Below are positions 5,124-55,604 of a DNA stretch of 64,000 nucleotides, in pieces. Each line of letters starts with the position of its first letter. Within the stretch, counting starts at the first letter, position 1. Both the position numbers and the translations under genes were made by a program. The notes beneath the pieces are model-generated. The model saw nothing but the letters and a program-made list of their open reading frames with translations, was not told the DNA's origin and ran no database searches. The stretch lies in contig CAYMJU010000086.1 of assembly GCA_964390555.1 (NCBI GenBank), positions 7,661 to 71,660 on the forward strand, in the 5' to 3' direction. Source of the stretch: an uncultured Acidimicrobiales bacterium. GTDB lineage: Bacteria > Actinomycetota > Acidimicrobiia > Acidimicrobiales > SHLQ01.

Positions 5124-6050
5124 ATGGGATATCTGGATGGCAAGGTCGTCGTCGTCACGGGCGGGGGGCGTGGGATCGGGCGGGCCACTGCGCTGGCCGC
5201 GGGTGCCGAAGGTGCGCAGGTGGTCGTCGCCGACTACGGCGGGGCCGTCGATCGCCGCGCCGGTGCGTCACCCGATGCGGCGCAGGCCGTGGTCGCCGAG
5301 ATCGTCGCCGCCGGCGGGCGAGCCACCGCTGCTGGCGAGGACGTATCGAGCCTCGACGGTTGCCGGCGGATCATCGCCACCGCCGTCGACGGCTACGGAC
5401 GGCTCGACGGGATCGCCTGCTTCGCCGGCATCACGGTCACGAAGTACCTGTGGGAGCTCGACGAGAGCGACTGGGACGACGTGATCGGCGTGCACCTCAA
5501 GGGGCACTTCGGCTGTGCCCAGGCTGCGGCCCGACAGATGATGGAGCAGGGGAGCGGCAGCCTGGTCTTCATCGGGAGCGGCGCCATGAACGGCACCCCC
5601 AACATGCCGAGCTACGCGACCGCCAAGGCCGGGATCCTCGGGCTGACGTGGAGCACCGCGTACGCCCTCGAGCGGTTCGGCATCCGCACCAACTGCGTGG
5701 TCCCCAGCGCCGCAACCCGCATGTCCGACAGCATCTACGGCAACGCCGAGATGCTTTCGGATCAGGTGGGGGAGACGATCCGGAGCGACCTGGCTGCAGG
5801 TACCTACCGCGATCCCGCCAACATCGCACCGCTCGTGCTCTATCTGTTCGGCGACAAGTCCGTGGGCATCAACGGTCAGGTGTTTCGCGCCCAGGGTTAC
5901 GACGTGGCCCGGCTCGGCGGTCTGGCGTGGGACAAGACGATGTCGAACGATGGTCCGTGGGACCTCGCGTCCCTCTCCGTGCGGTTGCCCCAGGAGCTCG
6001 GACCGACGCTCACGCCGCGGCCCGTTCCCTGGCCGGAACGGCCACGATGA
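5124..6050 (+). CDS. Short-chain dehydrogenase/reductase
   Basis: SD GGAGG lies 6 nt upstream of ATG 5124. Motifs: VVVVTGGGRGIGRAT and YATAKAG (YxxxK). Confidence 0.85.
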   Translation: MGYLDGKVVVVTGGGRGIGRATALAAGAEGAQVVVADYGGAVDRRAGASPDAAQAVVAEIVAAGGRATAAGEDVSSLDGCRRIIATAVDGYGRLDGIACFAGITVTKYLWELDESDWDDVIGVHLKGHFGCAQAAARQMMEQGSGSLVFIGSGAMNGTPNMPSYATAKAGILGLTWSTAYALERFGIRTNCVVPSAATRMSDSIYGNAEMLSDQVGETIRSDLAAGTYRDPANIAPLVLYLFGDKSVGINGQVFRAQGYDVARLGGLAWDKTMSNDGPWDLASLSVRLPQELGPTLTPRPVPWPERPR

Positions 6051-6080
6051 CTGGCGCCGGAACGGCCGCGATGACTGGCC
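6033..6080. repeat. 24-bp tandem duplication spanning the SDR stop codon
   Basis: CCGGAACGGCCACGATGACTGGCG (6033-6056) is followed by CCGGAACGGCCGCGATGACTGGCC (6057-6080). 22/24 positions are identical. The SDR TGA (6048-6050) lies in copy 1. Confidence 0.8.
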
Positions 6081-6162
6081 GGCGCGTCATGGCGCCCGAT
6101 TGCGGCCCGGCGCCCAAGCTGACAGTCTGCTGTCGCATTGTCGAAGGCTCGGGGGTACGCCC

Positions 6163-10542: not shown

Positions 10543-10570
10543 CTTGGGGGTTTGGTGTCGCAGGCCGAGG

Positions 10571-10654
10571 CTACGAGCGAAGCGAGCGCAGCCGAAGGAG
10601 CGCAGCTCCTCGGATGCAGATGGGGTCTGGTGGCGCAGCCCCCAGCGACAGATG
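10571..10654 (+). repeat. Double-hairpin interspersed repeat, copy A (shortened, no ATG)
   Basis: CTACGAGCGAAGCGAGCGCAGCCGAAGGAGCGCAGCTCCTCGGATGCAGATGGGGTCTGGTGGCGCAGCCCCCAGCGACAGATG aligns with the copies at 29498, 32364 and 36287. Confidence 0.75.
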
Positions 10655-11589
10655 CCGGCGTTCTCGACGAGCCGGGCCTCACCGTCGCGGTGCCCGTAGG
10701 CCTGTTGGACACGAGCCAGTCGTTCCGGGTCGGTGGATTGTGCGCCGAGCAGGTCGACCGCCTGGTCGCGCTCGGCGGAGCGTGGCCCCCGATCGTGATC
10801 GAACCGGGCCGACGGCGCGTCATCGACGGAGCGCACCGGGTCGCCGCGGCCCGCCGGCTCGGTTATAGCCATGTCCAGGCCGAGCTCTTCCACGGCTCGC
10901 CCGACGAGGCGTTCGTCGAGTTCGTTCGCCGCAACGTGACCCAGGGGCTCGTGCTCTCGTTGGCCGAGCGCAAGCACGCCGCGGTTCGCATACTGCGCAC
11001 GAGCCCGATCTGGTCGGACCGAAGGATCGCCGAGTTGTGCGTCGTGTCCCCGAAGACGGTGGCGCGGCTGCGGTCGGGGGACGGCTCGTGCCCAAGTGAG
11101 GACGCGGCCCACTCCGACGACGAGCGTCGTGTTGGCCGCGACCTCCGGGTTCGGCCGGTGCGACGAGGATCGGTGCGGGCGCTGGTGATCGAAGCGGTAC
11201 GGGCGCAGCCGAAGGCGTCGTTGCGCACCATCGCCGCGTCGGTCGGTGTGTCCCCGGAGACCGTGCGCCTGGTCCGGCGGAACCTTGCGCCCGGCGGGTC
11301 CTTGGTGGACGCCGGGTGCGACCTCGATCCTGCCCCGAGCGTCGACGACGGCTCGCCGACCGACACCGTGACCCCATGGCACTGCGATGCCGCGCTGGCC
11401 TCCAGCGAGCGCGGCGAGGAATTCACCCGGTGGTTCGAGAGCACCCATGTCGACGACACCGACCTGAGCTGGGTCGACGCGGTCCCCTTGGGCCGCGTCT
11501 ACGTGGTCGCCGAGGTCGCTCGCCAGCGGTCCGAGATCTGGCTGCGGATCGCCCGGGCCCTCGAGGCCCGTCCGGCGCGAGCGCGGTGA
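10630..11589 (+). CDS. ParB/sulfiredoxin-domain transcriptional regulator (StrR-like)
   Basis: ParB N-terminal domain pattern: AWPPIVIEPGRRRVIDGAHRVAAARRLGYSHVQAELF. Two HTH-like segments follow: SDRRIAELCVVSPKTVARLR and SLRTIAASVGVSPETVRLVRRNL. The start is uncertain. In-frame candidates are GTG 10630, GTG 10555 and TTG 10552. The ORF-track start at 10393 overlaps TetR-1 and was rejected. Confidence 0.65.
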   Translation: MAQPPATDAGVLDEPGLTVAVPVGLLDTSQSFRVGGLCAEQVDRLVALGGAWPPIVIEPGRRRVIDGAHRVAAARRLGYSHVQAELFHGSPDEAFVEFVRRNVTQGLVLSLAERKHAAVRILRTSPIWSDRRIAELCVVSPKTVARLRSGDGSCPSEDAAHSDDERRVGRDLRVRPVRRGSVRALVIEAVRAQPKASLRTIAASVGVSPETVRLVRRNLAPGGSLVDAGCDLDPAPSVDDGSPTDTVTPWHCDAALASSERGEEFTRWFESTHVDDTDLSWVDAVPLGRVYVVAEVARQRSEIWLRIARALEARPARAR

Positions 11590-29463: not shown

Positions 29464-29495
29464 CTGCATCCCACCCCAGGTGGGGTAGGATGCAG
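29464..29495. terminator. Stem-loop downstream of the SDR gene
   Basis: CTGCATCCCACCCC-AGGT-GGGGTAGGATGCAG forms 13 of 14 bp. It lies 23 nt after the stop and has no T-tract. Its 3' arm contains TAGGA, the only SD-like sequence for the repeat mini-ORF. Confidence 0.35.
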
Positions 29496-29497
29496 CC

Positions 29498-29594
29498 TAT
29501 GAGCGAAGCGCAGCGAGCGAGTGCAGCCGAGGGAGCGCAGCTCCCCGGTTGCCGATGGGGTCTGGGGGCGCGTAGCCCCCAGCGACGACGATGA
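29498..29594 (+). repeat. Double-hairpin interspersed repeat, copy B (with a 31-codon mini-ORF)
   Basis: TATGAGCGAAGCGCAGCGAGCGAGTGCAGCCGAGGGAGCGCAGCTCCCCGGTTGCCGATGGGGTCTGGGGGCGCGTAGCCCCCAGCGACGACGATGA. ATG 29499 is in frame with TGA 29592-29594. Confidence 0.8.
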
Positions 29595-29902
29595 AGGACG
29601 TCCACGAGAAGGCTGTGCTCAACCGGCTGAAGACCGCGCGGGGCCACTTGGATGCGGTGATCCGCATGGTCGAGGCCGACGCGTACTGCCCCGACCTGAT
29701 GAAGCAGCTCGCGGCGGTACAGGGCTCGTTGGAACGGGCCAGCCGGATCGTCTTGCGCAATCACCTCGAGACGTGTGTCGCCGCTGCGATGGCGGCGGGT
29801 CGCACCGACGAGATCGTCGAGGAGCTGATGGACGCCCTGCGCTATGACCGCACCGTCACCGCGCCCGGTCCCGAGTTGCACCTGACCGAGCAGGGGGGGT
29901 GA
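29591..29902 (+). CDS. csoR: CsoR-family copper-sensing repressor
   Basis: The Cys-His-Cys fingerprint has CsoR spacing: YCPDL..(25 aa)..NHLETC. The product is 103 aa, sits directly upstream of a Cu-ATPase, and overlaps it. Confidence 0.9.
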
Positions 29903-32363: not shown

Positions 32364-32457
32364 CATGAGAAGCGAAGCGACCGAATGCAGCCGAGGGAGC
32401 GCAGCTCCCCGGACGCCGATGGGGTCTGGGGGCTCGCGGCCCCGGCGACAACGATGA
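32364..32457 (+). repeat. Double-hairpin interspersed repeat, copy C (mini-ORF with a canonical SD)
   Basis: AAAGGAGGGGGC-ATG(32365)...CGATGA(32457). The body GCAGCCGAGGGAGCGCAGCTCCCCGGACGCCGATGGGGTCTGGGGGCTCGCGGCCCCGGCGACAACGATG aligns with copies A, B and D. Confidence 0.8.
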
Positions 32458-33515
32458 TCGATCGGGAGTCGCTGGCCGCGGCACTGAGGCCCGCGTCAGA
32501 GCCACGGATCATCGACGGGGTATACACCGAGGACCAGTTCGAGTCGTTGCTCGGCGTGGTGAAGGAGCACGGGCCCTGGCCGACCATCACCGCCCACCAC
32601 TTCCAGTCAGTCGAGGAGCTCATCGCCACCACGTCGGGTGTGGTTCCCAAAGGTCACGGACTGACCCTCGATGCCATGGCGACGGCCAACTTCCGAGGGT
32701 TCTACGCCGCGAACTCGTGTTGCTACTACCCAGAGATCCACGACTGCTTCTTCAACGCCGGGTTCATCGAACGGGTCAAGGACTACTGGGGGGCGAAGTA
32801 CGCCAAGCCGACGCTGATGCTGTTCAACATCTGTGGCCCGCACAACAGCGGCCTCAGTCCGCACCTCGACGCGGTGACCTTTCGCGGCGTGAGGATCGAG
32901 AACACCCCGGTGTGGATGCAGAACGTGATGGGGAAGTCGGGGTTGTTCCGCGACTACATCGTGAAGATGGCCCAGGTCATCACCTGGTTCTGGTTGGGCG
33001 AGGAGGGCACGTTCACCTACTGGCCCGACGGGCCGCTCGGTGCGCCGCGCCGTATCGAGCACCCGATGTGGAACAAGGGGGTCGTCGTTCAGAACGAGCT
33101 GATGTTCCACCGTGGCGATCCGGTCGGTCGCCCCGACGAGCGGGCCGTACCCGGGCTCGCGAATCGCTCGAGGATCGGGTACCGCGCCTCCACCGACGAT
33201 TGGGCGGTCTCGACCGATGGCGAGGTGATGCGGACCTACGAGCCCGGCAACGTCCGCTTCTTGGTGCACTGGAATGCCGAGGTGTACGCCGACCTGGACG
33301 AGGCGAAGCTGGTGATGGACCACACCGACGATCTGACCCATGATCGGGTCGTGGCCACGTTGCTCGCCGACATGCGGGCCAAGGGCGTCAAGGTCGCGGA
33401 GCCGAGCGACCCGTTCCACGACGACGACTTCATCCACGCGCTGATCTCGACGTACACGATCGCCCCGACCCAGGACTGGGTCCAGCGCACCGACGGCGTG
33501 CGTCGTTCGTCCTGA
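32454..33515 (+). CDS. Hypothetical protein (possible non-heme-iron oxygenase fold, speculative)
   Basis: Strongly GC-rich third positions over 353 codons. ATG 32454 overlaps the mini-ORF stop. I recognise no family. It contains SPHLDAV (HxD) and a later MFHRGD. The alternative start ATG 32385 lies inside the repeat. Confidence 0.65.
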   Translation: MIDRESLAAALRPASEPRIIDGVYTEDQFESLLGVVKEHGPWPTITAHHFQSVEELIATTSGVVPKGHGLTLDAMATANFRGFYAANSCCYYPEIHDCFFNAGFIERVKDYWGAKYAKPTLMLFNICGPHNSGLSPHLDAVTFRGVRIENTPVWMQNVMGKSGLFRDYIVKMAQVITWFWLGEEGTFTYWPDGPLGAPRRIEHPMWNKGVVVQNELMFHRGDPVGRPDERAVPGLANRSRIGYRASTDDWAVSTDGEVMRTYEPGNVRFLVHWNAEVYADLDEAKLVMDHTDDLTHDRVVATLLADMRAKGVKVAEPSDPFHDDDFIHALISTYTIAPTQDWVQRTDGVRRSS

Positions 33516-35194: not shown

Positions 35195-36724
35195 GTGGGC
35201 ACGATCACCATCTCGGGCCCGACCGGCGAGGACGCCCGGCTCGCGGCGTGGGTCGAACGGGAGCTCGGCGGCCGGGTCACCCGGATCGCACGGCTACCTC
35301 GGTGGCGCCCGGCGTGGGACATCGACGTCGAGGTGAGCGGAGAGGTGGTGCCGCTTCACGCCCGAGGGGAGAGGGAGCCGACGATCCTCATGCCCTTCCG
35401 GATCGCCGACGAGGTACCCGTTCATCACCTGCTCGAAGCGCACGGCGTGCCCGTTCCCCACGCCTACGGGCTCTGTGACGATCCCCATGCCCTGGTGATG
35501 GACCGGCTGTCCGGGAACGTCGATCTGTCCTTTGCCGCCGACGACGCCGAACGGGATCAGCTGACCGGCGACTACCTCGAGCACTTGGCCCGCGTCTACG
35601 ACATCCCGATTTCAGCGGCGGTGGCCGCCGGGTTCGAGATGCCCGCCGACGATGCCGGGACCGCCCTGGGCTACTTCCGCAGGATCGAAGCCGACTACGA
35701 CCCGTTGATGGAGGGACAGCCGGTCGATCCGATCGCCCTGTTCTTCCGTCGCTGGTTGGCCGGCAACGTCCCGGTCGGCCGGCGCGCGTCGGCCCGGTTC
35801 ATCCTCTACGACGCGTTCCAATTCATGTTCGCCGAAGGTCGCGTCACCGGTCTGCTCGATTTCGAGACGGCCCACATCGCCGACCCGATGATGGACCTCG
35901 CCGCGCTCCGGGTCCGCGACACCATCAAGAGCATGGGCGATCTCGAAGCCCTGGTCGCCCGCTACGAAGCGGTCACCGGAATCCCGGTCGACCACGACGT
36001 GATCGAGTACCACAGCGTCTTGTACAACGTGTTGTCGGTGATCCCGACCGGGCCGTCGCTTGCCGTGCCGACCAGGGGTGTCGACTGGCTCACGTATCTG
36101 GCGTGGTACACCAACGGCGCCCGGTGGGCGTTCGAGTGCATAGCCGAGATGCGGGGCTTCCAGCTCGACCCCGTCGAGATCCCCGAGCCGCGGCCCACCC
36201 GACGGGCCCCCGCGTACCGCCATCTAGTCGACAGCTTGCGCGCCGCTTCCTCTCCTGGGAGCGAGGCCCCCAGCGACAACTATGAGGGAGCGCAGCGACC
36301 GAGTGGCAGCCGAGGGAGCGAAGCGACCCGGATGCCGATCGGGTCTGGGGGCGCAGCCCCCAGCGACAACTATGAGCGGTTGAGTGCGGGCAAGCTGGCC
36401 AACCACCTGCGGCGCGTCGACGAGGTCGGGCCGGCGTTCGATGCCGCCGATCTCGACGACCTGGCCGGTGTCCTCGGGTATCGCCCCGATCGGGCCGAGG
36501 CCGAGGCCGAGCTGGTCGAGTTGGTGGCCAATGCCGGCCCCGAGCGCGAGGAAGAGCTCGTGCGGCTTCTCGACGCCCGAGCGCAGCGGATGCACTACAC
36601 GCTGGCGTCGTCGACGTCGCTGCTGGTGCGCCACCCGCGGCTTCGCAGCCTGCGTTCGGGCCGGTCGAGCGCCCGGGGAGCCGACGAGAGCTGGCCCGCC
36701 GGCGCCATCCCCGGCACGGCCTGA
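35195..36724 (+). CDS. APH/choline-kinase-like phosphotransferase family protein with an in-frame repeat insertion and a C-terminal extension
   Basis: GTG 35195 directly follows the upstream TGA. Kinase-fold C-lobe: GLLDFETAHIADPMMDLAALR. The catalytic-loop position reads ILYDAFQFMF rather than HGDxxxxN. At 509 aa it is longer than its two paralogs here (344 and 370 aa). Confidence 0.75.
   Translation: MGTITISGPTGEDARLAAWVERELGGRVTRIARLPRWRPAWDIDVEVSGEVVPLHARGEREPTILMPFRIADEVPVHHLLEAHGVPVPHAYGLCDDPHALVMDRLSGNVDLSFAADDAERDQLTGDYLEHLARVYDIPISAAVAAGFEMPADDAGTALGYFRRIEADYDPLMEGQPVDPIALFFRRWLAGNVPVGRRASARFILYDAFQFMFAEGRVTGLLDFETAHIADPMMDLAALRVRDTIKSMGDLEALVARYEAVTGIPVDHDVIEYHSVLYNVLSVIPTGPSLAVPTRGVDWLTYLAWYTNGARWAFECIAEMRGFQLDPVEIPEPRPTRRAPAYRHLVDSLRAASSPGSEAPSDNYEGAQRPSGSRGSEATRMPIGSGGAAPSDNYERLSAGKLANHLRRVDEVGPAFDAADLDDLAGVLGYRPDRAEAEAELVELVANAGPEREEELVRLLDARAQRMHYTLASSTSLLVRHPRLRSLRSGRSSARGADESWPAGAIPGTA
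36267..36376 (+). repeat. Double-hairpin interspersed repeat, copy D (90-bp unit plus duplicated 20-bp end, in-frame in a CDS)
   Basis: CCCCCAGCGACAACTATGAG occurs at 36267-36286 and again at 36357-36376 (period 90 bp, or 30 codons). The body GGAGCGCAGCGACCGAGTGGCAGCCGAGGGAGCGAAGCGACCCGGATGCCGATCGGGTCTGGGGGCGCAG aligns with copies A-C. Confidence 0.8.
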
Positions 36725-43667: not shown

Positions 43668-45337
43668 CCGTCTGGCCCGCGTCCCCGGTGGTCGACGCCG
43701 GCGCCGCCTTGCCGTCGACGTTGCCCGAGCTGTTGGCGGCTCGGGCGGCCGAGCGGTGCGACCACCCGCTGCTGATCTGCGACGACGAGGTCCTCACGTT
43801 CGCCGAGACCGAGCGCCGGTCGGCGGTCCTCGCCCGGGGGTTGCTGGCCGCCGGCGCCGGGAAGGGAACCCACATCGGCTTGTTCTTCCCGAACGGCGCC
43901 GATTTCGTCGTCGCGGCGATGGCGGTCGCCCGAATCGGCGCGGTCGTCTTGCCGCTGTCGACGCTTTCCACCGCAGCGGAGCTCCGGACCTTGCTGCGCA
44001 GCGCCGACATCGAGATCCTCATCGCCTCGGCGACCTATCGTGGCAAGGACCACGTCGCGCTGATCCACGAAGCGCTGATTCACGAAGCGCTGATTCACGA
44101 CGCGGTCGATGGTCTCGGCCTCGACGTGGCGCCGCCCCTGTATCTTCCGGCGGTGCCGGCGTTGCGTCGGGTGGTGGTCGACTCGCCCGCCCCAGGCATC
44201 GGCACCGCGTCGACGGTGGAGGCACTGATCGCCGAGGGCGAGTCGGTAGAACTCGCGGTGCTGGCCGCCGCCGAGGCCCTGGTGCGACCCGGCGACCGGT
44301 TGGTCATCGTGCACACGTCGGGTTCGACGAGTGCACCGAAAGGCGTGATCCACCAGCACGGGCCGCTGATCCGCCACCAGGACAACCTCAACGCCCTCCG
44401 CGGCTACCAGCGGCACGAGATCCTGTTCTCGAACTCCCCGTTTTTCTGGATCGGCGGGTTCGCGTACAGCCTGCTCGCCACGCTGGTGGCTGGCGCCACG
44501 CTGGTGTGTTCGAACGCTACCGATCCCTCGGGCACGCTGGACGTCCTCGAACGGGTCCGGCCCACGATGGTCAACGGGTTCGCCCAGAGCGTCGCTCACC
44601 TCGGCGCCCACCCTTCGTTCCCCGGGCGCGATCTCTCGTCGATCCGTCGGGGAAACCTGTGGCCGATCATGCCGCCAGATGTCCGGGCCGCCGATCCGGA
44701 ACTTCGGCACAACCTGTTCGGCATGACCGAGACGGGAAGCGTGTGCCTGGCCAGCGACGACGAGTCCGACCAGCCCGAGCATCGGCGGGGTTCGTTCGGC
44801 AAGCCCGTGCCGGGGTTCACCGCCCGCGTCGTCGACACCGACTCGGGCGCCGAATGTGTCACCGGCGAGGTGGGGGAGCTGTGGCTTCGAGGCCCGTTCC
44901 TGATGGAGGGCTACTACGGCCGGGAACGTCACGAGACCTTCGAGCGCGACGGCTGGTACCGCACCGGAGACCTCTTCCACGTCGATCCCGAGGGGTTCTT
45001 CTACTTCACCGGCCGTCGAGGCGACATGATCAAGACCGCGGGCGCGAACGTTTCGCCTCGCGAGGTCGAGGGCGCGATCGCGGACCTGACCGGCCTCGTG
45101 GCCCACGTCGTCGGCGTCGACGACGCGGCGAGGGGCCAGATCGTGGCGGCGGCCGTGCGGGTACCCGCGGGCCAGGCCGGACCCGAGCTCGACGAGCTGC
45201 GTCGCGCCCTGCGGACTCGGCTCTCGGCGTACAAGGTGCCCCAGCGAATCCTCGTCCTGGCCGACGCCGACGTGCCGATGCTGTCGAGCGGCAAACTCGA
45301 CGCCCGGGCGTTGAAGGAGCTCTTCGGTGCCCTTTGA
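43664..45337 (+). CDS. Acyl-CoA synthetase (AMP-dependent ligase)
   Basis: GTG 43664 overlaps the upstream TGA (GTGA). AMP motif: IVHTSGSTSAPKGVIH. C-terminal GWYRTGDLFHVDPEGFFYFTGRRGDMIK. Confidence 0.9.
   Translation: MTVWPASPVVDAGAALPSTLPELLAARAAERCDHPLLICDDEVLTFAETERRSAVLARGLLAAGAGKGTHIGLFFPNGADFVVAAMAVARIGAVVLPLSTLSTAAELRTLLRSADIEILIASATYRGKDHVALIHEALIHEALIHDAVDGLGLDVAPPLYLPAVPALRRVVVDSPAPGIGTASTVEALIAEGESVELAVLAAAEALVRPGDRLVIVHTSGSTSAPKGVIHQHGPLIRHQDNLNALRGYQRHEILFSNSPFFWIGGFAYSLLATLVAGATLVCSNATDPSGTLDVLERVRPTMVNGFAQSVAHLGAHPSFPGRDLSSIRRGNLWPIMPPDVRAADPELRHNLFGMTETGSVCLASDDESDQPEHRRGSFGKPVPGFTARVVDTDSGAECVTGEVGELWLRGPFLMEGYYGRERHETFERDGWYRTGDLFHVDPEGFFYFTGRRGDMIKTAGANVSPREVEGAIADLTGLVAHVVGVDDAARGQIVAAAVRVPAGQAGPELDELRRALRTRLSAYKVPQRILVLADADVPMLSSGKLDARALKELFGAL
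44057..44101 (+). repeat. In-frame 15-bp x3 tandem repeat in the acyl-CoA synthetase gene
   Basis: GCGCTGATCCACGAA / GCGCTGATTCACGAA / GCGCTGATTCACGAC encodes ALIHE-ALIHE-ALIHD. Confidence 0.9.
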
Positions 45338-48217: not shown

Positions 48218-49411
48218 ATGAACGTGTTGCCCATCGACGCCGACCACCACTACTACGAATCGCTCGACGCCTTCACCCGGCACATGCCCAGGGAGTTCGC
48301 CCGCCGCGGCGTGCGGGTCGTCCGCGACGGCAAGCGGGTGGAAGTGGTGATGGGCGACAAGGTGAACCGGTTCATCCCCAACCCGACCTTCGATCCCATC
48401 ATCGTGGCCGGCTGCCTGGACCTGTTCTTCCGGGGTCAGATCCCCGACGGGATCGATCCTCGGACGGTCCAGCAGGTCGAGCCTCTTGACCGGCACCCCG
48501 AATACCAGGATCGTGACGCGCGGCTGAGGGTCATCGAGGAACAGGGCCTCGGCGCGGTGTTCTTGTTCCCGACGCTCGGATGTGGAGTGGAGCAGGCGCT
48601 TCGATTCGATGCCGAGGCCACGATGGTGAGCCTTCACGCCTTCAACCTGTGGCTCGAGGAGGCCTGGGGCTTCGACTACGGGGGACGGCTGATCGCGGCA
48701 CCGATGCTCTCGCTCGCCGATCCTGCGGCGGCGGTGGCCGAGGTCGACTCGCTGCTCGATCGGGGGGCGCAGATGGTCCACGTCCGTCCAGCTCCCGTCC
48801 CGACCGGAGATGGCGGGGGCCGATCGCTCGGGCACAAGGACCACGACGCGGTGTGGGCGCGCTTGGCCGAGGCCGGCGTCCCGGTGGCCTTTCACCTCGG
48901 CGACAGCGGGTACGAGGGGGTGCTGGCCTCCGCGTGGGGTGCCCACGGCACCTTCGAGGGGTACGGCAAGCTCGATCTGCTCACCAAGATCACGGTGTCG
49001 GACCGGGCGATCCACGACACCGTGGCGTCGTTGATCGTCGATGGCGCGTTCGCCCGCAACCCGGGGCTCAAGGTGGCGAGCATCGAGAACGGCTCGGATT
49101 GGGTGAAGCTGCTCGTCAAGCGGCTGCGAAAGCAGATGAACCAGACGCCCTGGGCGTTCAAGGGTGACCCGATCGAGCAGCTCCGCCAGAACGTGTGGGT
49201 CACGCCGTACTACGAGGAGGACATCGTCGCCCTAACCGAGGTTCTCGGTGCCAACCGGGTGCTGTTCGGCTCCGACTGGCCCCACGGGGAGGGACTGGCG
49301 ACGCCGCTCGACTTCGTGAACGAGCTCGACGGGCTCGACGACGACACCAAGGCGCTCATCATGCGCGACAACGCGCTCGAGTTGCTCGGCCGAGTGTCGG
49401 TGGTGGTCTGA
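48218..49411 (+). CDS. Amidohydrolase-2 (ACMSD-like TIM-barrel metal hydrolase/decarboxylase) family
   Basis: N-terminal IDADHHYYE (HxH-type metal motif). C-terminal VLFGSDWPHGEG. Confidence 0.8.
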   Translation: MNVLPIDADHHYYESLDAFTRHMPREFARRGVRVVRDGKRVEVVMGDKVNRFIPNPTFDPIIVAGCLDLFFRGQIPDGIDPRTVQQVEPLDRHPEYQDRDARLRVIEEQGLGAVFLFPTLGCGVEQALRFDAEATMVSLHAFNLWLEEAWGFDYGGRLIAAPMLSLADPAAAVAEVDSLLDRGAQMVHVRPAPVPTGDGGGRSLGHKDHDAVWARLAEAGVPVAFHLGDSGYEGVLASAWGAHGTFEGYGKLDLLTKITVSDRAIHDTVASLIVDGAFARNPGLKVASIENGSDWVKLLVKRLRKQMNQTPWAFKGDPIEQLRQNVWVTPYYEEDIVALTEVLGANRVLFGSDWPHGEGLATPLDFVNELDGLDDDTKALIMRDNALELLGRVSVVV

Positions 49412-53601: not shown

Positions 53602-54636
53602 GTGAGCGCCGAGGTCATGGACGATCTGGATCCTGAGCGGCTGCGGGAGTGGCTGGCGACGGCGCTTCATGCCACGGTGTCGCCGGTGACCGTGACCCGG
53701 TTGGCCGGCGGGCATTCGAGCGGCGCGTGGCGGCTGGACGTCTCGATCGGTGGGGTTGCTCGGCCGCTTGTGCTCAAGGCCCCCACGCAACCGAGCGTGG
53801 TGTTTCAGCGCGATGCAGTCCGCGAGGCCCGCATCCTGTCCGACCTGCACCGGCTCGGAGCGCCGGTCCCCGAGATCGTGGCCATCGACGAGGGTGACCG
53901 AGCCGTGGGTCGGCCGTGCTTCGTCATGGCGTACATCCCGAGCCGCAGCGTCGAAGACGCGGCACCGGGCGCCTACCACGCCGATATCGAGCTGAGGGCC
54001 GTCGGCGTCGAAGGACAGCGAGCCGTTTGGCACTCCTTCCACGACGCGCTGGCGGCACTGCACTCGGTCGACGCCGCACAGGTTCCCGCGGCTCGGCTTG
54101 GCGACGCGGGTGTCGCCGACGTGCTCGCCTACTGGCGCGCGTCCCTGCTCGACGTCGCCCCTGCGGCGGCGGTGCCCCGGCAGATCGCCGTGCTCGACTG
54201 GCTGAGAGCCAACACGCCGCCCGACGCCGACGACGCGCCGGCGGTGTGCCTCGGCGACGCTCGCCTGGTCAACGCCTTGCTCGCCGGCACGGAGGCCCGG
54301 GCGCTGGTGGACTTCGAGGTCGCCTACGTCGGCAATCCCGCGGCCGACATCGCCTACAGCCTGTTCCTCGACAGCTCGTCGCGCCGAAGGGCCGCACAAC
54401 CGCTGGACTTGCCGACCCACGACGAGACGTGGGCCCGCTGGAGCCGAATCACCGGTCGGCCCTTGGACCACCTGGTCTACTGGACCGCGTTCGCAGCGAC
54501 GATCCTGTGTGTCACCGCGACCCGGGCCATGATCCAGTGGGAGGTCGCCGCGGTGGCCGACGTCGAGGCCGTCAACCCGGTCGTGGCCGAGTGGGAGGTG
54601 ACCGTCGAGCGAGCCACCACGAGAGGAGCGCGATGA
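53602..54636 (+). CDS. APH/choline-kinase-like phosphotransferase family protein
   Basis: GTG 53602. LAGGHSSGAWRLDV (Gly-rich loop region), catalytic loop CLGDARLVNALL, and LVDFEVAYVGNPAADI. Confidence 0.8.
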   Translation: MSAEVMDDLDPERLREWLATALHATVSPVTVTRLAGGHSSGAWRLDVSIGGVARPLVLKAPTQPSVVFQRDAVREARILSDLHRLGAPVPEIVAIDEGDRAVGRPCFVMAYIPSRSVEDAAPGAYHADIELRAVGVEGQRAVWHSFHDALAALHSVDAAQVPAARLGDAGVADVLAYWRASLLDVAPAAAVPRQIAVLDWLRANTPPDADDAPAVCLGDARLVNALLAGTEARALVDFEVAYVGNPAADIAYSLFLDSSSRRRAAQPLDLPTHDETWARWSRITGRPLDHLVYWTAFAATILCVTATRAMIQWEVAAVADVEAVNPVVAEWEVTVERATTRGAR

Positions 54637-55604
54637 TCGTCGACACCGACGAGCAGATCCATGCCGCTGACCCCAAGGTGTGGTCGTGGAGCGAGTCGTG
54701 GTTCTTCTCGTTCATCGATCTCGATGGTGGCCCGGCACTGGTGTTCCGGGTGGGCGTCGTGCCCAACCAGCGTCGAGCCATGCTGTGGGCCTTCGTCCAC
54801 GTCGACGGCGAGTGGCTTGCGGTCGAGGAGTCCCGGCTTCACGCCGACGATCTGCGCACCGAGCGGGGCATCGCCTATGACCGGTGGGCGCTTCAGTTCG
54901 CCTGGGAGCCGACAGAGGCGCTGAAGGCGTCACGGTTCAGCTTCTCCGGATCGTGCCTGGCCCGTTCTGGCCCCCGGGCGGGAGCCGTCGTGCCGGTCTC
55001 GATCGACGTCTCGACCACAGCGACGGCATCGCTCCTTGTCACCGGCACCGGCGAGGCCGGTGGGGTCACCGGTACCGGCGAGGCCGGTGGGGCCGCCGAG
55101 TACCCGACGAACCGGTTCGAGCAATCCGTCCAGGTGGTCGGGTCGGTGGTCATCGACGGCGTTTGCCACGAGGTGCGGGGCGGCGGGCACCGCGACAAGT
55201 CGTGGGGCCCTCGGGACTGGCGGGTGGCGTTCACCATCGGCGACCTTCAGGGCGACGACCGCCAGCTCTACTTCGTGGGCCGCCGACCTGGTCAGGGGTC
55301 GGGGTATGTGCGGGCCGGCACCGACGAGCTCCAGGTGATGCGTTGGGTCGGCGGAGAAGTCGGCTTCGACGATGCCAACCGCACGATCACCGGTGCCCGA
55401 CTCGAGCTCGCCGCGGGCGACACTCGGATCGAGGCGACGCTCAAGCCCATCGGACCCAGCATCTGTTTCGATATGGCGCACACGTGCCCCGAGCCCGAAC
55501 ACTGGCTCTACTACCGGGCCCTGGTCGAGGCTCGGGTCACGGGCTGGAGCGAGCCGGTGCGGGGTTGGTTCGAGACGAGTCGTTACGGTGAGGAGCAGCG
55601 CTGA
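54633..55604 (+). CDS. Conserved hypothetical protein (tentatively CrtC/AttH-like beta-barrel)
   Basis: ATG 54633 overlaps the upstream TGA (ATGA), and its stop shares 1 nt with the next ATG. WSWSESWFFSFIDLDGG and GGHRDKSWGPRDW resemble DH-x-WG motifs of that superfamily. The family call is low confidence. Confidence 0.65.
   Translation: MIVDTDEQIHAADPKVWSWSESWFFSFIDLDGGPALVFRVGVVPNQRRAMLWAFVHVDGEWLAVEESRLHADDLRTERGIAYDRWALQFAWEPTEALKASRFSFSGSCLARSGPRAGAVVPVSIDVSTTATASLLVTGTGEAGGVTGTGEAGGAAEYPTNRFEQSVQVVGSVVIDGVCHEVRGGGHRDKSWGPRDWRVAFTIGDLQGDDRQLYFVGRRPGQGSGYVRAGTDELQVMRWVGGEVGFDDANRTITGARLELAAGDTRIEATLKPIGPSICFDMAHTCPEPEHWLYYRALVEARVTGWSEPVRGWFETSRYGEEQR
55037..55090 (+). repeat. In-frame 27-bp x2 tandem duplication
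   Basis: GTCACCGGCACCGGCGAGGCCGGTGGG / GTCACCGGTACCGGCGAGGCCGGTGGG (26/27 identical) encodes VTGTGEAGG twice. Confidence 0.9.

Follow-up and report, generated by a model that had tools for sequence, protein, structure and literature searches.

Mycobacterial interspersed repetitive units (MIRUs) are repeats of 40-100 bp that lie in the spacers of operons and point the same way as the genes, with short direct repeats at filled sites; they carry open reading frames (ORFs) which overlap neighbouring genes at -4 spacing, and the units form tandem arrays (PMC3184786, PMC12548453). Rickettsia palindromic elements (RPEs) are palindromic sequences that can insert in-frame in protein genes, where the added peptide is compatible with the fold of the protein (PMC10969869). 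The locus described here lies in a stretch of 64,000 nucleotides from an uncultured Acidimicrobiales bacterium (contig CAYMJU010000086.1 of assembly GCA_964390555.1, positions 7,661 to 71,660 of the forward strand; GC content of the source 69.5%), which is termed the window throughout and whose own numbering is used for all coordinates. It consists of one copy, copy D, of a family of short hairpin-forming repeats, situated within the gene for a kinase homolog of the aminoglycoside phosphotransferase (APH) family. Comparison with orthologs makes it highly probable that copy D is an in-frame insertion of the repeat into a variable linker of this protein.

Copy D within the kinase-like gene

The host gene and the parts of it that concern copy D are as follows.

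35195..36724, + strand: host gene, encoding an APH-family (aminoglycoside-phosphotransferase-like) kinase homolog (ORF, Pfam and ~120 full-length orthologs of 465-480 aa).
36287..36376, + strand: copy D, one complete 90-bp unit read as 30 in-frame codons, G365-E394 (nhmmer E = 1e-26).
36255..36286, + strand: probable 5'-truncated extra unit, or native linker resembling the 3' end of the element (nhmmer match to model positions 77-110).
36305..36336, + strand: hairpin 1 of copy D, GGCAGCCGAGGGAGCG AA GCGACCCGGATGCC (predicted fold and family alignment).
36337..36363, + strand: family core in copy D, GATCGGGTCTGG followed by hairpin 2 and AG (invariant alignment columns and predicted fold).
36377..36721, + strand: native C-terminal ~115 aa of the host protein (aligned and conserved in all orthologs; predicted helices).

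The ORF opens with a GTG start and encodes a protein of 509 aa, in which residues 70-258 match Pfam family PF01636 (APH) with 45.9 bits against a curated cut-off of 23.2, and no Pfam family match was found for the last ~115 aa. An initial annotation, made without database searches, had reported a 20-bp duplication with an exact 90-bp period in this gene, and both positions were confirmed: exact copies of the 20-mer CCCCCAGCGACAACTATGAG lie at 36267-36286 and 36357-36376 (chance expectation 0.01 matches), with a period of exactly 90 bp, and its sole other match in the window, at 29576 with 3 mismatches, lies within another copy of the repeat (copy B). The reading frame likewise runs straight through the duplication as had been described, giving ...APSDNYE-GAQRPSGSRGSEATRMPIGSGGAAPSDNYE-RLSAG.... 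Of the two paralogs that the same annotation had counted in the window, only one clear APH case was found, at 53725-54522, with 23% identity to the host protein.

Copies in the window were detected by a repeat search together with an nhmmer profile built from the copies, and the profile match to copy D spans 36280-36378. The unit closes with the downstream 20-mer (36357-36376) and includes hairpin 2 (GGGGGC GCA GCCCCC) at 36347-36361; it is without a stop codon in the frame of the host gene, and the 30 residues that it encodes are rich in Gly, Ser, Ala, Pro and Arg. TATGAG is present on either side of the unit, the boundary being an out-of-frame TGA within the TAT-GAG codons. Directly upstream of copy D, 27 of 31 bases are identical, by eye, to the 3' end of a full unit, and the profile gives a weak match to the last third of the element at 36255-36288 (E = 0.008-0.01), where the sequence from 36255 to 36286 contains a second hairpin in degenerate form, along with the tail and the upstream 20-mer. 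Copy D would therefore be described better as roughly 1.3 units, one full unit and the remnant of a second, which agrees with the ~1.3 tandem copies first suggested and has parallels in truncated extra units of other family members, such as that at locus L007.

Evidence that the unit was inserted comes from orthologs. A search of a protein collection returned ~120 full-length relatives of 465-480 aa with 97-100% query coverage, of which 118 of 120 span the insertion site; a separate alignment of 21 sequences was also made. All 118 of the orthologs that span the site have 6-14 residues there (22 in one of them), against 45 in the host protein, and in the 21-sequence alignment a single clean gap stands opposite the insert in every relative. 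The 90-bp segment, for which the initial annotation had proposed an ortholog alignment as a check, is thus absent from 118/118 site-spanning orthologs. In the DNA of two relatives the empty site reads GCT CCC GAC TAC GAG CTG and GCT GAC GAC TAC GAG CGG, and these codons include those of a native Asp-Tyr-Glu motif at the start of the next helix. The linkers of the orthologs are rich in Ala, Gly and Pro. The C-terminal region is present in every aligned relative, down to 59% identity and with one Mycobacterium protein included, and in all full-length orthologs (to 51-59% identity) the kinase-like part and the C-terminal ~115 aa make up one protein of 465-480 aa. Since all site-spanning orthologs are already one protein that includes the C-terminal ~115 aa, the arrangement argues for an in-frame insertion and not for a gene fusion.

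This favours the first of the two explanations put forward at the outset, an in-frame insertion of the kind known for RPEs, as the segment is absent from 118 orthologs and homologous to intergenic copies elsewhere. Conservation of the 30 residues in distant orthologs, with no repeat homology elsewhere, had been named as an outcome that would speak for ordinary coding sequence; the segment is instead absent from them, and homologous copies exist. The position of the insert in the protein was considered using an AlphaFold2 model built on the ortholog alignment (predicted template modelling score 0.79). Termini aside, only residues 356-390 have a predicted local distance difference test score (pLDDT) below 50, and they are modelled as coil between helices 338-352 and 389-427, with the predicted helices of residues 389-468 at pLDDT 85-97. 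Judged by this model, the host protein has most likely kept its ability to fold and has tolerated the insertion.

Architecture and siting of the repeat family

Four full copies of the repeat are found in the window, all on the + strand and within 26 kb (nhmmer E 1e-22 to 1e-29). Besides copy D these are the following.

10569..10658, + strand: family copy A (nhmmer E = 3e-22; ORFs; Pfam).
29490..29594 (profile match 29492-29597), + strand: family copy B, a 34-codon mini-ORF (nhmmer; Pfam PF02583 of the next gene).
32366..32457 (profile match 32367-32461), + strand: family copy C, a mini-ORF (nhmmer; ORFs).

Copy A is degenerate, with CTACGAG in place of CTATGAG, and has a divergent TetR-like gene on one side and, downstream, a gene on the + strand that encodes helix-turn-helix domains. 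The stop of the copy B mini-ORF overlaps (ATGA) the ATG of a gene for a CsoR-type metal-sensing repressor (29591-29902; PF02583), and the mini-ORF of copy C, with AAGGAGG ahead of it, ends in the same kind of overlap (ATGA) with the ATG of the next gene at 32454. A tail, CAGCGAC(A/G)AC(G/T)ATGA, is common to copies A-D (10569, 29490, 32366 and 36287) and is lacking in the closest copy from another genome, at locus L001; it may be specific to a subfamily, or may be flanking sequence carried along from a parent copy.

Units of the family are 86-101 bp long and have a common layout, in which a 5' stretch like GAGCG(A/C)AGCGA is followed by hairpin 1, GAT(G/C)GGGTCTGG, hairpin 2 (GGGGGC-GCA-GCCCCC) and a short tail. 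In the family alignment, 9 base pairs of hairpin 1 show compensatory changes over 53 copies, the arms varying yet staying complementary, and this points to conservation of the structure, whether as RNA or as single-stranded DNA. In the alignment the apex of hairpin 1 occurs in two states, with a block of 4-5 nt inverted between them (...GCGAGCGCCAGCGAGCC... vs ...GCGAGCGCCAGCTCGCC...), and is self-complementary in only one of the two. The states separate, for example, L004, L019 and L026 from most other loci and, in the window, where they read GGGAGCGCAGCTCCC and GGGAGCGAAGCGACC, copies B and C from copy D.

The distribution of the family elsewhere was examined with a strict pattern covering both halves of the unit and a looser pattern covering the 3' half only. 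Among genome contigs the strict pattern found one locus, L001, in an Acidimicrobiales metagenome-assembled genome (MAG), and on metagenome contigs it found no match. At L001 two copies flank rapZ, and the second of these, between rapZ and a YvcK-like gene, is a 30-codon mini-ORF with an ATGA overlap at each side. The 3'-half pattern gave 67 loci in metagenomes, of which 64 were kept after removal of three that look like chance matches (L018, L050 and L065); at least 60 loci of the family come from soil and sediment metagenomes. The family profile gives 82 matches overall, among which are tandem arrays of 4 units with a 92-nt period (L051) and of 3 units with an 88-nt period (L003), and of 2 units at several loci. 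The nearest named sources are Acidimicrobiales and Acidimicrobiia MAGs. No match to the element was found in viral contigs, and plasmids gave a single match of 28 nt, in a Streptomyces plasmid, and nothing more. Rfam holds no family that matches the element, either in the window at gathering thresholds or in five of the loci at E <= 1, and a literature search on the core sequence of the family returned nothing relevant.

The position of the copies relative to genes was assessed by calling the coding strand and frame of the flanks from third-position GC content. A clearly coding upstream flank that runs in the direction of the element was seen for 36 copies, and in 28 of these 36 the first in-frame stop lies at the 5' boundary of the element; in 25 of the 28 the boundary TGA is itself the stop of the upstream gene. 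Four further copies, of a shortened variant, also directly abut a TGA. The normal site of the family is thus either right after the TGA stop of a gene in the same orientation or at a stop/start overlap of the form (A/G)TGA. Copies at gene junctions often form a mini-ORF with ATGA overlaps, which can allow translational coupling.

On either side of single copies stand direct repeats of 7-13 nt, 87-99 nt apart, with TGA at their end. These repeats include native gene sequence, as seen in RapZ orthologs, almost all of which end in HRD[VIL]x[RK] exactly like that of L001, and in L004, where the duplicated 13-mer includes the GTGA overlap of the mraZ/rsmH junction together with its Shine-Dalgarno sequence. 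In some subfamilies, the 3' direct repeat looks as if inherited with the element. At L027 (- orientation, ~anchor 1564) the direct repeat around a copy is 41 nt long, against the usual 7-13 nt, with a spacing of 143 nt, which suggests a larger local duplication taking in the element.

Among ~66 loci, the only internal in-frame insertion is copy D, and one further case (L015) is C-terminal. At L015 (- orientation, ~anchor 1133), an acyl-CoA-dehydrogenase-like gene runs through a family copy to a new C-terminus, gaining ~28 element-encoded residues (...MGSGGASPQGE-stop) in the same element frame as copy D, and the 12-nt flanking repeat, AAGGAGCCGAAG, is without TGA. Two other candidates for in-frame insertion, L033 and L045, proved to be intergenic.

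A further property of the family concerns complementarity between the element and its flank. In most copies, 4-11 nt just upstream of the boundary TGA, corresponding to the last codons of the upstream gene, recur as their reverse complement within the element, in the segment that separates the GAGCG(A/C)AGCGA stretch from the foot of hairpin 1. The longest flank-complementary run averages 4.63 nt, compared with 3.91 +/- 0.12 when the flanks are permuted (500 permutations, maximum 4.29), and in one subfamily flank and internal segment covary (CCGGCT/AGCCGG, GTGGC/GCCAC and TGGCT/AGCCA). The internal complement could be a guide that selects the target, a copy of the target made at insertion, or a hairpin under selection. 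Complementarity to the flank is weak in copies A-D, with 4/5 complementary bases in copy D, and guide-like pairing in copy D was rejected, the internal segment of copies A-D being nearly constant and a poor match to their flanks. On the most far-reaching interpretation, which is speculative and rather unlikely, the family would be a small mobile element of an undescribed kind, which finds its targets, stop codons and stop/start overlaps, through base pairing. The variable internal segment would either guide insertion, in a geometry like that of the IS200/IS605 left end yet with duplication of the target, or be copied from the target, and copy D would be an off-target insertion at the out-of-frame TGA of TAT-GAG.

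One pair of loci, L016 (1-190) and L029 (2345-2540), carries the same element at an orthologous site with near-identical flanks and with the 5' hairpin rebuilt. In L016 an 11-nt inverted copy pairs with the end of the upstream gene, stop codon included, and in L029 the same 5' arm pairs instead with an inserted 12-nt segment.

Origin of copy D and competing explanations

In the proposed course of events, a small, hairpin-forming and non-autonomous repeat would have entered the linker of the kinase homolog in-frame, arriving by a transposition-like spread. The native Tyr-Glu codons, TAT GAG, hold an out-of-frame TGA(G) that would mimic the usual junction of the family, and TATGAG may have acted as a pseudo-target. 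The 90-bp unit, being stop-free in frame, would add 30 residues to a disordered loop between two helices and leave a host protein that is presumably still functional, and frame-breaking insertions would be removed by purifying selection. Of 41 distinct units, the period is a multiple of 3 in 13, the register of copy D is open in 24, and both hold for 10; ~1 in 4 would therefore keep the frame by chance, and no special adaptation is needed. Selection for an in-frame unit length was not seen in these units (13/41 divisible by 3). The extra 0.3 unit of copy D fits the truncated units and arrays found elsewhere in the family, for example at L007.

Several points weigh against insertion as outlined here. 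The closest ortholog is only 78% identical, and we infer the insertion event, its age and any copy-number polymorphism. The upstream 20-mer exceeds the usual flanking repeat of 7-13 nt, being either a truncated unit or native tail-like sequence, and part of it may be native rather than derived from the element. Excision of exactly 90 bp leaves a linker of 15 residues, slightly above most orthologs (11-12), and excision of ~1.3 units leaves 5-8 residues, like the shortest orthologs. The contig appears to be metagenome-assembled, which makes a repeat mis-assembly formally possible, and the single 509-aa product is a prediction from the sequence. Neither a transposase nor any other mobilising enzyme was identified, no search having been aimed at one.

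Of the competing explanations, the one that survives best is that the insert has been co-opted. It would then serve as a functional flexible linker, or the distance from the kinase core to the C-terminal helices would be tuned by an in-frame minisatellite of variable length. This would be in keeping with a unit length that is a multiple of 3, with the tandem arrays elsewhere in the family and with the position of the insert exactly between structured parts. However, there is one internal in-frame case among ~66 loci and no excess of multiples of 3 in the unit lengths (13/41), and co-option is considered improbable.

A second possibility is that copy D arose without a mobile element, by local tandem duplication of native coding sequence through slippage, as in variable-number tandem repeats. 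The direct repeats with their exact 90-bp period, the resemblance of the upstream flank to the 3' end of the unit and the similarly Ala/Gly/Pro-rich linkers of orthologs would all be expected of such a process. The 70 bp between the two 20-mers are, however, without counterpart in any ortholog, and this segment has intergenic homologs (E to 1e-29) both elsewhere in the window and in other organisms. As an account of the whole insert slippage is very improbable, and it may explain the extra 0.3 unit only.

Improbable to a still greater degree is an assembly artefact, in which a dispersed repeat was mis-joined or collapsed within the gene. The element is repeated in the same genome, and only one NCBI contig, of 116,791 bp, is known to encode the identical protein, which is the sole member of its cluster; however, both flanks are contiguous parts of one gene that align to orthologs in the same frame, and precise junctions with the frame kept would be a rare outcome of a chimeric join. 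The second explanation in the initial annotation, that a stop-less intercistronic copy fused a kinase-like gene to a separate 115-aa gene, is refuted by the ortholog alignment and retains almost no probability: the element does lie between genes as an ATGA-overlapping mini-ORF (copies B and C, and rapZ/yvcK at L001), but ~118 full-length orthologs, to 51-59% identity, hold both parts in a single 465-480 aa protein without the element, and the C-terminal part is well conserved. In-frame insertion of a dispersed repeat remains by far the best account of copy D.

Some other features of the analysed sequences are separate from copy D. The sole Rfam match in the window above the gathering score, at 48290-48387 on the - strand, is to the Mycobacterium small RNA Ms_AS-1 (RF02463; 50.1 bits vs a cut-off of 37, over the full model length); this is unexpected in Acidimicrobiia-like sequence, and the match may be due to conserved coding sequence of the opposite strand. 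Two RapZ homologs, P0122 (362 aa) and P0163 (346 aa), contain an internal tandem duplication of ~65-80 residues, e.g. EPVRAEADVV...HWVDELRPLTGLD, which is unrelated to the element and could be real or an artefact of assembly. Short tandem repeats with periods divisible by 3 are also present in the window, at 55038-55116 (27 nt x 2.8), 44057-44104 (15 nt x 3.2, 93% match) and 6029-6082 (24 nt x 2.4), and are probably in-frame coding repeats unrelated to the family.

Comparison with known repeat elements

Rickettsia provides the best-documented cases of selfish repeats inserted in-frame into genes, and copy D is a clean example from an actinobacterial lineage that is free-living and high in GC, in which > 100 orthologs show the empty site. 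It indicates that an element of gene junctions can lengthen a protein linker merely through a frame compatibility of ~1/4. The family is of greater weight than copy D itself, given its siting at stop codons, the translational coupling that its mini-ORFs may provide, its minisatellite arrays and its flank-complementary segment. If this complementarity reflects the choice of target, it would offer a testable model for the spread of MIRU-like elements. Such elements can also mislead gene callers on starts, ends and fusions in Acidimicrobiia genomes.

The likeness of copy D to RPEs is confined to this copy, as a palindromic insertion that is in-frame and lies in a predicted coil. RPEs differ in being ~150 bp long, in occurring in Rickettsia and in having nearly half of their reported copies inside ORFs, whereas the present family has 1 internal and 1 C-terminal case (L015) among ~66 loci, with frame compatibility at chance level. 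MITEs, or miniature inverted-repeat transposable elements, show similarity in being small, non-autonomous and dispersed, with flanks like target-site duplications, and are sometimes intragenic and in-frame (PMC10969869). However, the terminal inverted repeats that define MITEs are absent here, the longest end-to-end complementary run averaging 3.26 against 3.64 for shuffled ends.

Repetitive extragenic palindromic (REP) sequences, bacterial interspersed mosaic elements (BIMEs) and the palindrome-associated elements (PATEs) derived from IS200/IS605 resemble the family as short extragenic hairpin repeats just 3' of stop codons, and a further possible likeness lies in the segment just 5' of hairpin 1 that is complementary to the upstream flank. 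This flank-complementary 5' segment resembles the guide-to-target geometry of the left end of IS608. In contrast to IS200/IS605 insertion, which does not produce them, duplications of native sequence flank the copies described here, and the target varies between subfamilies; no Y1 transposase or REP-associated tyrosine transposase (RAYT) was found, no search having been directed at either.

MIRUs offer the most extensive parallels. As in MIRUs, the units are of Actinobacteria type, GC-rich and dispersed (here 86-101 bp), co-oriented with genes and placed at the upstream stop in 28/36 scorable copies; they hold small ORFs with ATGA (-4) overlaps (copies B and C, and copy 2 of L001), form tandem arrays (L051 and L003, with copy D at ~1.3 units) and show short direct repeats at filled sites. 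The differences are that units of the present family form strong hairpins, two or three in number, whose stems covary, that its flanking repeats are longer (7-13 nt) and that its hosts are Acidimicrobiales-like and soil metagenome sequences rather than Mycobacterium. Similarity to MIRU motifs A and B (PMC6286618) was not significant in (A+B)x2 local alignment, with most z < 2, collinear matches of only 10-11 nt and best matches of 10-14 nt. Copy D adds a new example to a phenomenon that was already known. In its behaviour, as compared here, the family stands closest to MIRUs, and it appears to represent a variant of MIRU/REP-like junction elements that is undescribed and has an intriguing relationship to its targets.

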